Shown: one piece after another, positions 39,620 through 48,516 of the stretch
Numbering within the stretch: position 1 is the first letter of the stretch
Layout of the letters: the number at the start of each line of letters is the position of its first letter
From: an uncultured Gammaproteobacteria bacterium
GTDB taxonomy: Bacteria; Pseudomonadota; Gammaproteobacteria; Steroidobacterales; Rariloculaceae
Length of the DNA stretch: 64,000 nucleotides
Reading direction: 5' to 3'
Assembly (NCBI GenBank): GCA_963817615.1
Contig: CAWFPH010000003.1
Span: 1,822,718-1,886,717 of the forward strand
Notes under the pieces: generated by a model
Database searches by the model: none
What the model saw: the letters and a program-made list of their open reading frames with translations, nothing else
Told to the model about the DNA's origin: nothing
Translations under genes and position numbers: made by a program

Positions 39620-40715
39620 TCAAAGTCCTTGCTTCAAGCTTTCCTGGAGAAAGTCGTCGAGATCACCGTCGAGCACGGCCTGCGGCCGGCCGCTTTCGAG
39701 GCCGGTGCGCAAATCCTTCACGCGCGACTGGTCGAGCACGTAGGAGCGGATCTGATTGCCCCAGCCGATATCCGCTTTATTCTCCTCCACGATCTGCGCC
39801 TGCTCGCGCCGCTTCTGCTGCTCGAGCTCGTACAGCTTCGCGCGCATCTGGCTCAGCGCCATCGCGCGATTCTTGTGCTGCGAACGCTCGTTCTGGCACT
39901 GCACGACGATGCCGGTCGGCATGTGTGTCATGCGAATCGCCGATTCGGTCTTGTTCACGTGCTGGCCGCCCGCGCCGCTCGCGCGAAACACGTCGACGCG
40001 CAGATCGGCCGGATTGAGCTCGATCTCGATGTCGTCGTCGATCTCCGGCGACACGAACACCGCCGCGAACGACGTGTGGCGGCGATGCCCCGAATCGAAC
40101 GGCGACTTGCGCACGAGCCGGTGCACACCCGTCTCGGTTCTAAGCCACCCGTAGGCGTACTCGCCGCGCACGTGCAGCGATGCGCTCTTGATGCCCGCGA
40201 CCTCGCCGGCCGACTCCTCGAGCACGTCGACCGCGAAGCCGTGCGCCTCGCACCAGCGTAGGTACATACGCAGCAGCATCGCGGCCCAGTCCTGCGCCTC
40301 CGTCCCGCCCGAGCCGGCCTGGACGTCGAGGAACGCATGATGGGCGTCCATCTCGCCCGCGAACATTCGGCGGAACTCCAGCCGCTCGAGCTCCTTGGTG
40401 ACGCTGCCGAGCTGACCGATCAGGTCGGTGAGCGTAGCCGCGTCCTCCGCCTCCACCGCGAGCTCGTGGAGCTCGCCTGCTTCGGTAAGGCTCTTGTCGA
40501 CGGTTCCGAGCGTCTCGACCACGGTCTCGAGGCCGGCCCGCTCGCGGCCTAACGCCTGCGCACGCTCCGCGTCGACCCAAACGTTCGGATCTTCGAGCTC
40601 GCGCTTGACTTCCTCGAGCCGCTCGCGCTTCGCGTCATAGTCAAAGATACCTCCTGAGAGCGGTGCTACGCTCCTTGAGGTCGTCGATCGCTGCGCCGAT
40701 TTGATTGACTTCCAT
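39620..40715 (-). CDS. prfB: Peptide chain release factor 2, requiring a programmed +1 frameshift
   Basis: Frame 0 runs from ATG 40715: [24 protein letters not shown], then an in-frame TGA (40643-40641). The +1 frame continues [22 protein letters not shown]...SPFDS...[15 protein letters not shown] (SPF and GGQ motifs) to the stop at 39620. Confidence 0.95.
40640..40655 (-). promoter_or_regulatory. RF2 programmed +1 frameshift site
   Basis: The minus strand reads AGG AGG TAT CTT TGA C. An SD-like AGGAGG lies 3 nt upstream of the slippery CTT-TGA-C, as in the E. coli prfB autoregulatory site. Confidence 0.9.
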
Positions 40716-40811
40716 GCCCGGGCCCCCTCGTGCCGCGCAGATACTAGCATGCCGACGCCGACACGAGCCGCTCGTCTGTACATTTTGCGCTCGCGTGTCT
40801 ATGTTCTACGC

Positions 40812-41186
40812 ATGCTGCTGCACCGTGAAACGAGCGCCGCGAATCTGATCCGTGCTTGGGAAAAAGGCCGACTGCGGATTGCGGATCGCTGGTGGTCGGG
40901 CAATCTGATCGTGACGCCGGAGCGCCTCGTCGAAGACTGGCGCGTCGATTCACCGACGGCGCTCACGCCGGGCGACCTCGCTCCCGCGATCGAGCTCGAA
41001 CCGAACATCATTCTGCTCGGCACCGGCGCCGAGCTGGTCCTTCCCGACGTGGATCTGATGGGCGAGCTCGCGCAGCGCGGCATCGGGCTCGAGATCATGA
41101 GCACACCGGCTGCGTGCCGCACCTACAACGTGCTCGTGCACGAGCAACGGCGCGTGGCGGCCGCATTGCTGAACCCGGCCGCATAG
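40812..41186 (+). CDS. Mth938-like (DUF498 / NDUFAF3-like) domain protein
   Basis: Real start at ATG 40812 in track ORF 40701..41186. ...IILLGTGAELVLPDVDLMGELAQRGIGLEIMSTPAACRTYNVLVHEQRRVAAALL matches the recalled family pattern. Confidence 0.7.
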   Translation: MLLHRETSAANLIRAWEKGRLRIADRWWSGNLIVTPERLVEDWRVDSPTALTPGDLAPAIELEPNIILLGTGAELVLPDVDLMGELAQRGIGLEIMSTPAACRTYNVLVHEQRRVAAALLNPAA

Positions 41187-41236
41187 CAGCGGACGCAAAC
41201 GCCCGCGTTCGGCGTAGCTCGGCCGCCGTCTTTCGT

Positions 41237-41974
41237 TCAATCGTCGAGCGGCTGAATGCCGAGTCGCGCGAGGCGTTCAAGGCCGTCCTTCATGGCCTTG
41301 AGCGCTTGCGGCGAGTGTCCCTGCCAGCTCGTGATCTCGCTCATCACCCGCAAAGGGTCGCGCGAACGGAACGATTTCGTCGGATTGCCCCGAAATTTCT
41401 TGTTCGTCAGATTGGGATCTTCTTCGATCGGGCCGGTCGGTTCGACGATGTAGATTCTGCCGGGCGCTTCGCCGGCCGCCAGCTCCGCTCCCCAGGTGGC
41501 TGCATCCAGCGTGCGGCTCAGGTAGACGTAGGTCGTCGTCCTGCCCTTGTCGCCGAAGTTGGGTGTCTGGCCCGGCTCGATCAGGTCTCCCGGCCGCAGA
41601 TCGGCACGAGTGCCATGATAAAGAGTCCACTCCGTGACCTCGCCCGTGACCCGCAACGGCTCGCGGGAGCAACACGACATCGACGGGTGGCCTCCAGGCC
41701 TGCGTCCCGTCAGGTCGGAGGCGTCTTCGATCCGGCCGAGCGGCTCTACGCGATAGACCCTGCCCGGACCGTCGCCGACCGCGAGCTCCGCTTCCCAAAT
41801 GGCCTCGTCGAGATTCGCGGTCAGAAAAACGTAGGCTGCGACGCCGTCCGGCTCGGCGCCGTCGCGAGAGTCGCCGGGCTCGGTCAAGTCTCCCGGCCGC
41901 CGCTCGAGCCGAGTGCCATGGTAGAAGCGCTTCGCTTGCAAATCGTCGCTCGCGCCGAGATCGCCGTTGCTCAT
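41237..41974 (-). CDS. arr: Rifampin ADP-ribosyltransferase (Arr) family protein with two tandem Arr domains
   Basis: The C-terminal half, LYHGTRADLRPGDLIEPG...TTYVYLSRTLDAATWGAELAAGEAPGRIYIVEPTGPIEEDPNLTNKKFRGNPTKSFRSRDPLRVMSEITSWQGHSP, closely matches Arr as I recall it from mycobacteria. The N-terminal half, FYHGTRLERRPGDLTEPG...AAYVFLTANLDEAIWEAELAVGDGPGRVYRVEPLGRIEDASDLTGRRPGGHPSMSCCSREPLRVTGEVTEW, is a diverged second copy. ATG 41974 with an AGAGGGA SD is preferred; the track start at 41998 is a TTG. Confidence 0.8.
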   Translation of the reverse strand: MSNGDLGASDDLQAKRFYHGTRLERRPGDLTEPGDSRDGAEPDGVAAYVFLTANLDEAIWEAELAVGDGPGRVYRVEPLGRIEDASDLTGRRPGGHPSMSCCSREPLRVTGEVTEWTLYHGTRADLRPGDLIEPGQTPNFGDKGRTTTYVYLSRTLDAATWGAELAAGEAPGRIYIVEPTGPIEEDPNLTNKKFRGNPTKSFRSRDPLRVMSEITSWQGHSPQALKAMKDGLERLARLGIQPLDD

Positions 41975-42121
41975 GTCGGTATCCCTCTCGCTCTGCAATC
42001 AGCGCCTCCGACGTTGCAGCTCAGCGGCCGCGGGGCAGCGCCGTTCCCCGCAGGTCGGCTGCTTCCGGGGCCTCATTCGAGACGGCCGCGCTGTCCGGCA
42101 CACGCGCTCGAGGACGGCTGT

Positions 42122-42877
42122 TCAGCGTCCGGCCGAGACCAGCAGCAACGGATCGACCGGCGTGCCGTTGCGGCGGATCTCGAAGTGCAGGCGCGGCCGG
42201 CGGCCGGGTCCGAGTCCCATCAGCGCGATCGTCTGACCGCGCGCGACGTCGTCGCCGTCGTGCACGCGCAGCTCGCTCAGATAGCCGTAGGCGCTCAAGT
42301 ACGTATCGTTGTGCTTGATGATCACGAGCAGACCGTAGCCGATCAGGCCCGCACCGGCGTACACGACGCGGCCGGCCGCCGCTGCCTTCACGGGTTGTCC
42401 CGCGCTGCCCGCGATTCCGATGCCGGATGCGATCCCGTCGGCCGCGCCGAAGCGCGTCGCAACCGCGCCGTCGGTCGGCCACAGCCACGGCGGCGCCGGA
42501 GCGGCGGGAGGCGCGGCCTCCGTCCGACTCTTCGCCGGCTCGAGCGGCGCCGCGGCACGTCCGCGGCTCCGCGCGGCTGCCGGCGCCGGCGGCACCCGCG
42601 CGAGAGCCGCGCGCGGCGCCGTGAGCCGCAGCCGTTGACCGACCCGAATCATGTCGGGATCGGCGAGCCCGTTCCAGCGCGCGAGATCGCGCTGGTCGAG
42701 GCGATGCAGCCATGCGATCTGATAGAGCGTTTCGCCTTTGCGCACGACGTGATACTGCGTGCGATCGCCGTCGAGGGAGTGAAAACAGCCGCCGCAGGCG
42801 GCGATTCCGACCCATGCGCAGAGCTCGAGGGTGAGGCGAACGGCGATTGTCGCGCGGCGTCGTCCGCGCCCGCTCAC
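42122..42877 (-). CDS. nlpD: LysM + M23 peptidase lipoprotein NlpD
   Basis: GTG 42877 forms a GTGA overlap with the pcm stop. Lipobox ...WVGIAAC|GG. LysM: YHVVRKGETLYQIAWLHRLDQRDLARWNGL. M23 C-terminus: ...IIKHNDTYLSAYGYLSE...GRRPRLHFEIRRNGTPVDP. Sits in the surE-pcm-nlpD synteny. Confidence 0.85.
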   Translation of the reverse strand: MSGRGRRRATIAVRLTLELCAWVGIAACGGCFHSLDGDRTQYHVVRKGETLYQIAWLHRLDQRDLARWNGLADPDMIRVGQRLRLTAPRAALARVPPAPAAARSRGRAAAPLEPAKSRTEAAPPAAPAPPWLWPTDGAVATRFGAADGIASGIGIAGSAGQPVKAAAAGRVVYAGAGLIGYGLLVIIKHNDTYLSAYGYLSELRVHDGDDVARGQTIALMGLGPGRRPRLHFEIRRNGTPVDPLLLVSAGR

Positions 42878-43542
42878 GTTTCCGTTCCCGCGACGAACGG
42901 CACGAAACTGACCGCGAGCAGATCTTCCTCGTGAAACTCGTTGCCCCCGCGGGTGACTCGCAACAGCTGCTGGCGGCCGCGAGCGCCGATCGGGATCACC
43001 ATCCGACCGCCCTCGTCGAGCTGCTCGAGCAAATCGGGCGGCACGTGCTCCGGGGCCGCGGCCACGAGAATGCCCTGAAACGGCGCCTGACTGCGCCAGC
43101 CGTGCCAGCCGTCGGCGTGCCGTATGCTCACATTGCTGATCTTCAAATCCGTGAGATGCGCGCGCGCGCGCTGCACGAGCGGCTGGATCCGCTCGACGCT
43201 GTAGACGTGCTGCGCGAATGCCGCGAGCACGGCGGTCTGATAGCCGCAACCCGTGCCGATCTCGAGCACCTTCTTGAGCTTCTTGCCGGGCGCATTCGCG
43301 ATCAGCGCTTCGGTCATCAGCGCGACGATGTAGGGCTGCGAAATCGTCTGGCCGTAACCGATCGGCAGCGCCGTGTCTTCGTAGGCACGGCTTGCGAGCG
43401 CCTCGTCCACGAACAAATGCCGCGGCACCGCGCGAATGCGGTCGAGCACGGCGGGGTCTTTGATGCCCTCGGCACGCAGCCGCTCGATCAATCGCTCGCG
43501 CGTGCGCGCGGACGTCATGCCGATGCCGCGCTGCTGATTCAT
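42874..43542 (-). CDS. pcm: Protein-L-isoaspartate O-methyltransferase
   Basis: Start at ATG 43542 (overlaps the surE stop). ...[43 protein letters not shown]...[16 protein letters not shown]... Confidence 0.93.
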
Positions 43543-44288
43543 TCGAAGCGCCGCAGCCAATCGCCGAGCGGCTCGAGCGCGGTGTGCGCGGTGAGGTCGA
43601 CCTTGAGCGGCGACACCGACACGTACCCTGCCGCGAGGGCATGGAAATCGGTGCCCGGTCCCGCGTCCTGGCCCGCACCCGCGGCCCCGATCCAATAGAC
43701 GGGCCGATTTTTCGGGTCGAGCGTCTTGATCGCGGGCTCGGACTTGTGACGGAAGCCGAGCCGCGTGGTCCGGATGCCTTTCACGGCGCCGGCTGGAAGG
43801 TCCGGCACGTTGACGTTGAGGATGGTCTCCGGCGGCAACGGTTCGGCGCGCGTGCGCTCGACGAGCCGTGCGACGAGATCGGCGGCCGTCTCGTAATGCT
43901 CACCTTCCGCGAGCACGAGCGACACCGCAATCGCCGGAATACCGAGGAACCGGCCTTCCATCGCAGCCGCGACCGTGCCCGAGTACAGCACGTCGTCGCC
44001 GAGATTGGCACCGTGATTGATGCCCGAGATCAGCATGTCGGGCGGCTCGGCGAGCAGACCGTTGATCGCGATGTGCACGCAGTCGGTCGGGGTGCCGTTC
44101 ACGTAGTAGACGTTCTCCTCGGCGCGCTCGACCCGCAGCGGCGTTTCGAGCGTGAGCGAATTGCTGGCGCCGCTGCGGTTGCGATCGGGCGCCACGACGG
44201 TGACGTCGGCCGTCGCCGCGAGCCGCTCGGCCAGCGTGCGCAGGCCTCGCGCCTGGTAGCCGTCGTCGTTCGAAAGAAGAATCCGCAA
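43539..44288 (-). CDS. surE: 5'/3'-nucleotidase SurE
   Basis: [23 protein letters not shown]...[16 protein letters not shown]...[24 protein letters not shown]... Confidence 0.95.

Positions 44289-44668: not shown

Positions 44669-48516
<3,848 letters not shown>

Follow-up and report, generated by a model that had tools for sequence, protein, structure and literature searches.

A widespread tandem Arr protein with a predicted rifamycin ADP-ribosyltransferase domain and a retained, degenerate N-terminal copy

The gene described here is a tandem arr, coding for a predicted rifampin ADP-ribosyltransferase (Arr) with two Arr domains in one chain. It lies on the minus strand of a 64,000-nucleotide stretch of contig CAWFPH010000003.1 from an uncultured gammaproteobacterium; this whole stretch is called the window, and coordinates refer to it unless stated otherwise. 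Within the window the tandem arr interrupts a run of core genes as a single inserted gene, with pyrG-kdsA-eno and then surE-pcm-nlpD on one side and a convergent gene of the DUF498 family followed by prfB-lysS on the other. The list of open reading frames (ORFs) gives the gene as ORF 41237-41998 on the minus strand, whose upstream-most start is a TTG at 41998. The ATG at 41972-41974 is the likely start, because the public gene call (P0001, 245 amino acids) is 100% identical to the protein read from this ATG and the N-termini of the family (MNKG..) align with the Met encoded at 41974. The features of the gene and its product are collected in Table 1.

Table 1. Features of the tandem arr gene and of its product, with window coordinates
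Feature	Position	Strand	Remarks
Tandem arr gene	41237..41974	-	245 codons plus TGA stop at 41237-41239; coding sequence without stop 41240-41974
Shine-Dalgarno-like motif GAGAGGGA	41982..41989	-	7 nt upstream of the ATG; read from the sequence, putative function
N-terminal tail, residues 1-16	41927..41974	-	equivalent to the single-domain Arr tail; weakly constrained
N-terminal Arr-fold domain, residues 17-116	41627..41926	-	predicted pseudo-enzyme
Ala85 codon	41720..41722	-	in the place of catalytic Asp84 of Arr-ms; never Asp in 119 relatives
C-terminal Arr core, residues 118-217	41324..41623	-	predicted catalytic copy
Asp186 codon	41417..41419	-	predicted catalytic Asp; aligns with Arr-ms D84; 99% Asp in the family
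Alpha2 helix segment, residues 218-245	41240..41323	-	M228-K229-D230-G231-L232 plus L235; present once, after the second core

The 245-residue protein contains two Arr cores spaced by 101 codons and thus exceeds the usual size of the small single-domain Arr (140-150 amino acids). The Pfam profile PF12120 (Arr-ms) matched two stretches, and the whole protein scored 254.7 bits against a cutoff of 25. When the halves were scanned singly, residues 1-116 scored 108.4 bits and residues 117-245 scored 150.8 bits, each spanning the model from end to end (positions 1-99 of 99). An earlier note on this DNA, made from the sequence alone, had proposed two complete Arr units per polypeptide with a period of 101 codons and had expected two non-overlapping profile hits; the two full-length PF12120 matches bear this out. 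The halves align with each other without gaps, with 49 of 100 residues identical (E = 2e-34), a homology far above chance. They follow each other without a linker, W116 being separated by one residue from the beta1 strand (LYHGT) of the second core. A full-length AlphaFold2 model calculated from a 44-sequence alignment (predicted local distance difference test, pLDDT, 77.7; predicted template modelling score, pTM, 0.73) has the same order of strands and helices in the N- and the C-half, and its pTM suggests a defined arrangement of the two domains. The NCBIfam equivalog NF033144, with a cutoff of 130 bits, gave 286 bits for the whole protein, 192 for the C-half and 98 for the N-half. Because the N-half alone stays below this cutoff, the membership of the protein in the Arr family rests on its C-half.

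We compared both halves with Arr-ms of Mycolicibacterium smegmatis by projecting its functional positions on 119 tandem proteins, with the residue roles taken from papers that build on the Arr-ms structure. In Arr-ms, NAD+ is bound by H19-G20-T21, by S37-N38-F39 of the D-loop and by Y49, D84 in the DPN[VL] motif is catalytic, and rifampin is contacted by V87, K91, L92, P96 and S99 and by M126-[RK]-[DE]-X-L130 and L133 of the alpha2 helix (PMC6092378; PMC8492726; 10.1101/2025.02.20.639278; PMC13246000); the M[RK][DE]XL motif was described in PMC6092378. Replacement of the H, Y or D by Ala, each singly, ends both in vitro activity and in vivo resistance, and D84A (= D83A) abolishes the activity of Arr-ms (PMC3138739).

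Table 2. Functional positions of Arr-ms in the two halves of 119 tandem Arr proteins (numbering of the protein in the window)
Arr-ms	C-half	N-half
HGT	H120-G121-T122, 100%	H19-G20-T21, 97-100%
N38	N139, 100%	Asp, 77%
F39	F/Y140, 99%	Val, 61%
Y49	Y151, 100%	Tyr, 91% (Phe50 in this protein)
D84 (catalytic)	D186, 99%	Ala 83%, Val 9%, Thr 3%, Ile 2%, never Asp
P85	P187, 100%	Ser, 82%
N86	N188, 92%	Asp, 59%
K91	K/R193, 100%	Lys, 78%
R101	R203, 100%	Cys/Arg
Alpha2 helix	M228-K-D-G-L232, L235, 85-98%	absent

In the C-half, the NAD+-binding, catalytic and rifampin-contact residues known from the literature are 84-100% conserved among the relatives (Table 2). In Arr-ms numbering they comprise HGT, N38/F39, Y49, D84, DPN[VL], K91, P96, S99, R101 and M[RK][DE]XL. 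The protein of the window has H120-G121-T122, N139-F140, Y151, D186-P187-N188-L189, K193 and R203, so that the H-Y-D triad (H19, Y49 and D84 in Arr-ms) is present as H120, Y151 and D186, each 99-100% conserved. At the place of the SN[YF] motif the D-loop has P138-N139-F140, a partial match, with Asn in 100% and Phe or Tyr in 99% of the relatives but Pro for the Ser in 77%. The rifampin-binding loop is complete (L189 T190 N191 K192 K193 F194 R195 G196 N197 P198). AlphaFold2 predicts a helix at residues 222-237, and positions 104-131 of the NCBIfam model, which cover this helix, are matched by the C-half only. Together with the helix, the C-half aligns with Arr-ms over 125 residues (phmmer, 2.9e-43), and Foldseek superimposed its AlphaFold2 model on 2hw2/9iaf with a TM score of 0.84-0.85, a root-mean-square deviation of 2.3-2.4 Å and 53% identity. 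By sequence and fold the C-terminal 129 residues are an ordinary Arr of the kind known from Arr-ms (2HW2/9IAF) and Arr-2 (9IBA): the H-Y-D triad and the DPNL motif are there, and so are both rifampin-binding elements, the loop and the MKDGL helix. The closest single-domain relatives are 64-68% identical. The claim that the C-terminal unit is near-canonical is upheld by its score of 192 bits against the cutoff of 130 and by the conserved catalytic residues.

The N-half retains H19-G20-T21, has F50 where 91% of the relatives have Tyr, and carries A85 at the position of the catalytic Asp; of the H-Y-D triad, this protein keeps only H19. Its NAD+ loop reads R37-D38-G39 (x-D-V in the family) instead of SN[YF], with loss of the Asn-Phe, its rifampin loop is partly retained (LT..[KR].PGHP), and the alpha2 helix is absent. 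The D-loop of the N-half is 2-9 residues shorter in six genomes (L013-L015, L018-L020), whereas the length of the C-half loop is invariant. Even the His of the HGT motif is lost in some members, as in FYYGT of Leptolyngbya boryana (WP_017291824.1, locus L032 3998-4690) and LYYGT of protein P0225. Modelled alone with AlphaFold2, the N-half reached a pLDDT of 65, and its first matches were the same Arr structures (2hw2, E = 2.7e-7, TM 0.62). Because the catalytic Asp, the Asn-Phe of the NAD+ loop and the rifampin-binding helix are lost, we consider the N-half a predicted pseudo-enzyme, which by its residues looks catalytically dead while the fold and the HGT motif persist. The earlier note had called the N-terminal unit degenerate, and the case is stronger than it claimed: the substitutions YVFLT, EDASDLT and GHPSMS that it listed are all found in the sequence, and EDASDLT puts Ala at the catalytic Asp. 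The change from YVYLS to YVFLT, taken there as drift, is present, but its Tyr-to-Phe replacement is peculiar to this protein, the Tyr being kept in 91% of the relatives.

Despite these losses the N-half is not decaying. Approximate ratios of nonsynonymous to synonymous substitution rates (dN/dS; Nei-Gojobori method, 20 genomes) were about 0.24 for the N core (0.20 without the D-loop) and 0.125 for the C core, and 0.68 for the D-loop of the N-half. Purifying selection thus acts on the N-half, although this loop evolves almost neutrally. The 16-residue leader had a dN/dS of about 0.77, a mean column identity of 0.68 and, for residues 1-10 of the AlphaFold2 model, a pLDDT below 50. An alignment of 17 N-halves contains 33 invariant columns, and the N-half has a conserved signature of its own, made up of DEAIWEAE, GHPSMSCC (often with Cys-Cys, at the place of Y100-R101 of Arr) and H96, the last conserved at 94%. 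In the protein of the window the Cys-Cys pair is C101-C102 (41669-41674), conserved in the family at 64% and 62%; active Arr proteins have Tyr100-Arg101 at this place, conserved at 92-100%.

Proteins with two full Arr cores and the layout of about 245 residues form at least 133 independent sequence clusters (at 90% identity) from many phyla. The junction ..VTEW-[T/P]-LYHGT.. between the cores occurs in at least this number of clusters, and also in complete genomes and plasmids. Searching 5.8 billion clustered proteins, we found that the best 120 matches were about 245 residues long, covered the full query and were 69-79% identical to it. A scan of one genome per species returned full-length relatives at 61-76% identity in Cyanobacteria (Altericista, Nodosilinea, Vasconcelosia, Myxacorys, Calothrix), Acidobacteriota, Chloroflexota, Gemmatimonadota, Polyangiaceae (Myxococcota), a Woeseiaceae metagenome-assembled genome (MAG) and a candidate Lambdaproteobacterium. 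An Ignavibacteria MAG also carries a tandem Arr, in a copy that appears frameshifted. Two tandem genes are annotated in RefSeq as 'arr: NAD(+)--rifampin ADP-ribosyltransferase', and both are plasmid-borne, on the conjugative pNsp_b of Nostoc sp. ATCC 53789 and on pLBX of L. boryana. A further tandem Arr, BAG82736.1 from an 'uncultured bacterium', is an entry of the 2008 era that is not traceable to a paper. The two-domain architecture is not rare: it forms a widespread family, which RefSeq already includes as arr.

All tandem members fall into one cluster at 50% identity, and an exhaustive search of 1.84 billion representatives at this level gave a single full-length tandem match (P0008). Among the same representatives we found no other architecture with two Arr domains and no stand-alone N-like proteins, and short matches to the N-half alone were truncated or frameshifted fragments. 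Judged by these sequences, the tandem Arr is one tight family that probably arose in a single event and then spread across phyla. Other Arr proteins of greater length consist of one Arr domain and an unrelated domain, apparently fused C-terminally (P0130, P0148, P0152, P0168, P0172, P0190, P0197): AHSA1/SRPBCC, which occurs in two independent representatives, GNAT, isochorismatase, SDR, Zn-ADH or alpha/beta-hydrolase.

The layout of the protein, tail (residues 1-16), core, core and helix, contains no second tail and no second helix. Exactly this order would result if the 101-codon core had been duplicated once, in frame and in tandem, whereas a fusion of two whole genes would require two extra deletions. 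Such an internal duplication, rather than a fusion of unrelated genes, had also been proposed in the earlier note; the layout fits it, but a neighbour-joining tree with 100 bootstraps, in which the N-halves were monophyletic in 100 of 100 replicates, grouped N- and C-halves together in only 3 of 100. The weak grouping is probably due to the long branch of the N-halves. In a three-way character count, N and C agreed at 6 positions, N and the closest single-domain Arrs also at 6, and C and the closest single-domain Arrs at 21, from which we conclude that the N lineage has evolved at roughly three times the rate of the C lineage.

A near-identical DNA stretch had been offered as further evidence of duplication. 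It is indeed present, with 23 of 26 nucleotides matching at 41572 versus 41875, together with the common GAGTGCCATG, and a repeat search found three DNA blocks at 303-nucleotide spacing that are 70-75% identical. It adds little as evidence, however, and does not indicate a recent event, since the 26 nucleotides concerned code for the conserved motif PGDLxEPG (in the YHGTR..PGDLxEPG region). The N-half of this gene is 66% identical in nucleotides to its own C-half, with a proportion of synonymous differences (pS) of 0.45, and 63% identical to the C-halves of unrelated genomes, with a pS of 0.59; the G+C content at third codon positions (GC3) of the gene is 0.78. The DNA likeness of the halves thus reflects conserved motifs and codon bias, and these values rule out both gene conversion and a duplication of recent date. 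The probable duplication is ancient and took place before the family spread.

No partner gene of the tandem arr is conserved across the loci compared, and the small ORFs upstream of it in five loci are unrelated. In unrelated genomes (L026, L027, L029/L030, L032) its neighbours often belong to the YCII, RibD_C, glyoxalase/VOC, Ble-like, DUF1801, GST and beta-lactamase families. The recurrence of such small detoxification-type genes points to islands of mixed detoxification functions and not to an operon, and these contexts fit a self-contained resistance or detoxification gene. Around the gene of the window, scans recognised no sigma-70 promoter, intrinsic terminator or Rfam element, and base composition at the gene shows no anomaly within the window. 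On pNsp_b and pLBX, a gene for a sigma factor of the RpoD/SigA family lies 0.7-2.8 kb upstream of the tandem arr on the same strand (L031 2337-3287, L032 1-1234); this proximity may be a coincidence or a link to a drug directed at RNA polymerase.

We consider it probable that the tandem protein is a rifamycin ADP-ribosyltransferase by virtue of its C-half and retains the N-half as a pseudo-enzyme with an accessory role. The C-terminal Arr domain and its helix (residues 118-245) would do all of the NAD+-dependent chemistry, binding first a rifamycin and then NAD+ and transferring ADP-ribose to the 23-OH of the ansa chain, as in Arr-ms; this core chemistry is most likely ordinary. The N-domain (residues 17-116) is probably the paralogous copy left by the old in-frame duplication of the 101-codon core in an ancestral arr. 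It would sit where the N-terminal tail of a single-domain Arr lies, and the C-half would start at the place expected for a helix of the N-half. In Arr-ms, the N-terminal tail supplies a rifampin contact, F9, to a shallow pocket (PMC6092378). The tandem protein differs from single-domain Arr in having an extra, degenerate core of 101 residues between the tail and the active core, and its active domain is without a free N-terminal tail of its own corresponding to the F9 region. Given the position of the N-half at the place of the tail, its most likely job would be to stabilise or extend the substrate side of the active domain, with the two domains, to judge from the chain topology, likely packed closely around that side.

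Several points weigh against this preferred reading. The N-half keeps the HGT motif (97-100%) and, in 91% of the relatives, the Tyr, and an Asp one residue before the lost catalytic position (D84 in the numbering of the protein in the window) is conserved at 86%; going by these residues, the N-half may have residual NAD+ or ADP-ribose binding or an unconventional activity. In the C-half, the Ser of SN[YF] is Pro in 77% of the relatives. The tree does not resolve N- and C-halves as sister groups, the dN/dS estimates are approximate because dS among family members is largely saturated, and the placement of the N-half by the rifamycin pocket is deduced from chain topology only. In the searchable literature we found no experimental report on any tandem member.

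A doubtful alternative, though more probable than those that follow, is that the dead N-copy is a dedicated, purpose-built binding module, which would bind a second rifamycin or the ADP-ribosylated product, or would anchor the enzyme on RNA polymerase or on another protein, in a regulatory or non-antibiotic role beside rifamycin inactivation. The purifying selection on the N-half (dN/dS 0.2-0.24), its possession of features unseen in active Arr (DEAIWEAE, GHPSMSCC and the 94% conserved H96) and the survival of HGT and Tyr after the loss of catalysis would suit such a module, but this half lacks the rifampin-contact helix and most residues of the pocket, and no gene neighbour is conserved across loci. 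Precedents exist among single-domain enzymes, in that Arr-ms has reported non-catalytic functions, with association with RNA polymerase and L11 (PMC3138739), and a second rifampicin stacks on the enzyme in the Arr-2 crystal (10.1101/2025.02.20.639278). The sigma-factor genes near the tandem arr of two cyanobacterial plasmids could point the same way or be a coincidence, but the two plasmids are related and come from a phylum rich in sigma factors. If the N-half were such a module, the substrate range, efficiency or mode of protection would be unlike those of single-domain Arr.

We regard it as very unlikely that both domains are active, whether as a double-headed rifamycin ADP-ribosyltransferase or as an enzyme for two different substrates. 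Each half does match the Arr-ms model from end to end, and the N-half keeps the His and, in most relatives, the Tyr, as well as the conserved Asp one position upstream of the lost one; yet the catalytic Asp is found in none of the 119 N-halves, and D84A alone kills Arr-ms (PMC3138739). The NAD+ loop motif of the N-half is moreover lost, variable in length and nearly neutral, the rifampin-binding helix is missing, and some members have lost even the His.

There is an equally slim chance that the protein no longer acts on rifamycins and instead ADP-ribosylates another target, either a different small molecule or a macromolecule. The hosts, which are cyanobacteria, acidobacteria, chloroflexi and similar groups, would rarely meet rifamycins, minimal ADP-ribosyltransferases of the Tpt1/KptA type, to which weak fold matches were seen here, act on nucleic acids, and an endogenous role of Arr has been reported in mycobacteria (PMC3138739). 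All known rifampin-contact residues are nevertheless conserved in the C-half, the curated equivalog threshold is passed, and diverse single-domain Arrs recovered from environmental metagenomes inactivate rifamycins (PMC6092378, PMC8492726). An artefact, be it a misassembly or the joining of two neighbouring arr genes through faulty sequencing or gene calling, has only the internal repeat itself in its favour and is excluded without recourse to reads by the same layout in at least 133 independent clusters and by the 66% DNA identity of the halves, which are too divergent for an assembler to collapse or expand.

Within the family of ADP-ribosyltransferase (ART) folds, the A components of binary toxins (VIP2, C2I, iota Ia and CDTa) offer the best precedent for the proposed combination of an enzyme with a dead copy, as an analogy that implies no relationship. 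Like the tandem Arr, they are tandem ART folds with an inactive N-terminal copy that serves as adaptor and a catalytic C-terminal copy, and their tandem is thought to stem from gene duplication (PMC4179152 and general knowledge). They differ in belonging to the R-S-E clade of ARTs, in targeting actin, in their length of about 400 residues and in being secreted and having a B component. We detected no sequence relationship between these toxins and the tandem Arr, and neither a B component nor a secretion signal here; with Foldseek only Arr structures were significant, and toxins of the cholera/LT type appeared at E >0.3. Should the N-half prove to be a binding module, the protein would be the first antibiotic-modifying ADP-ribosyltransferase described as a pseudo-enzyme/enzyme tandem, and a bacterial parallel, directed at small molecules, to the VIP2/iota-toxin design.

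Enzymatic resistance to rifamycins is due mainly to Arr, both in Mycobacterium abscessus and on Gram-negative integrons, and the single-domain structure underlies the current design of new rifamycins and Arr inhibitors. The tandem lineage could differ in its rifamycin spectrum or inhibitor sensitivity, and may matter for such design if the extra domain alters specificity. Arr-X, a group of mycobacterial and other bacterial Arr proteins, is likewise of recent recognition and found in many taxa, and has an altered rifamycin preference (eLife 2026, PMC13246000); unlike the tandem family, it is single-domain with all three catalytic residues. The group illustrates that functional surprises are still to be met in the diversity of Arr. 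We found no paper describing a tandem Arr in the searchable literature, and the largest genomic survey, which began with Arr-domain proteins of 36-679 residues and then filtered them by similarity to Arr-ms, did not discuss architectures (PMC8492726). The tandem layout is real, conserved and previously unremarked, and its sequences are public under the plain annotation arr, which makes the lineage invisible in resistome surveys at present. It offers a compact, testable case of a pseudo-enzyme domain kept after internal duplication; if the extra domain is a mere stabiliser, the outcome is a modest refinement of annotation.

Some minor observations concern the surroundings of the gene. The enolase (44672-45955), PyrG (46819-48462) and SurE (43542-44288) of the window, all on one 2.03-Mb contig, have no companions in their 90%-identity clusters in a collection of 15 billion proteins, and the host lineage is poorly sampled. 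The arrangement pyrG-kdsA-eno, surE-pcm-nlpD, prfB-lysS has a proteobacterial look. A 692-residue ORF on the plus strand (40856-42934), which runs antisense across arr into nlpD and is without family support, is expected to be spurious, of the kind that arises in DNA of 66-75% GC. In prfB, which starts with the ATG at 40713-40715, the programmed +1 frameshift site (AGGAGG TAT CTT TGA C) lies at 40640-40657 on the minus strand, and the 387-residue ORF at 39620-40783 is the frame-2 body of this gene, extended upstream through non-coding sequence.

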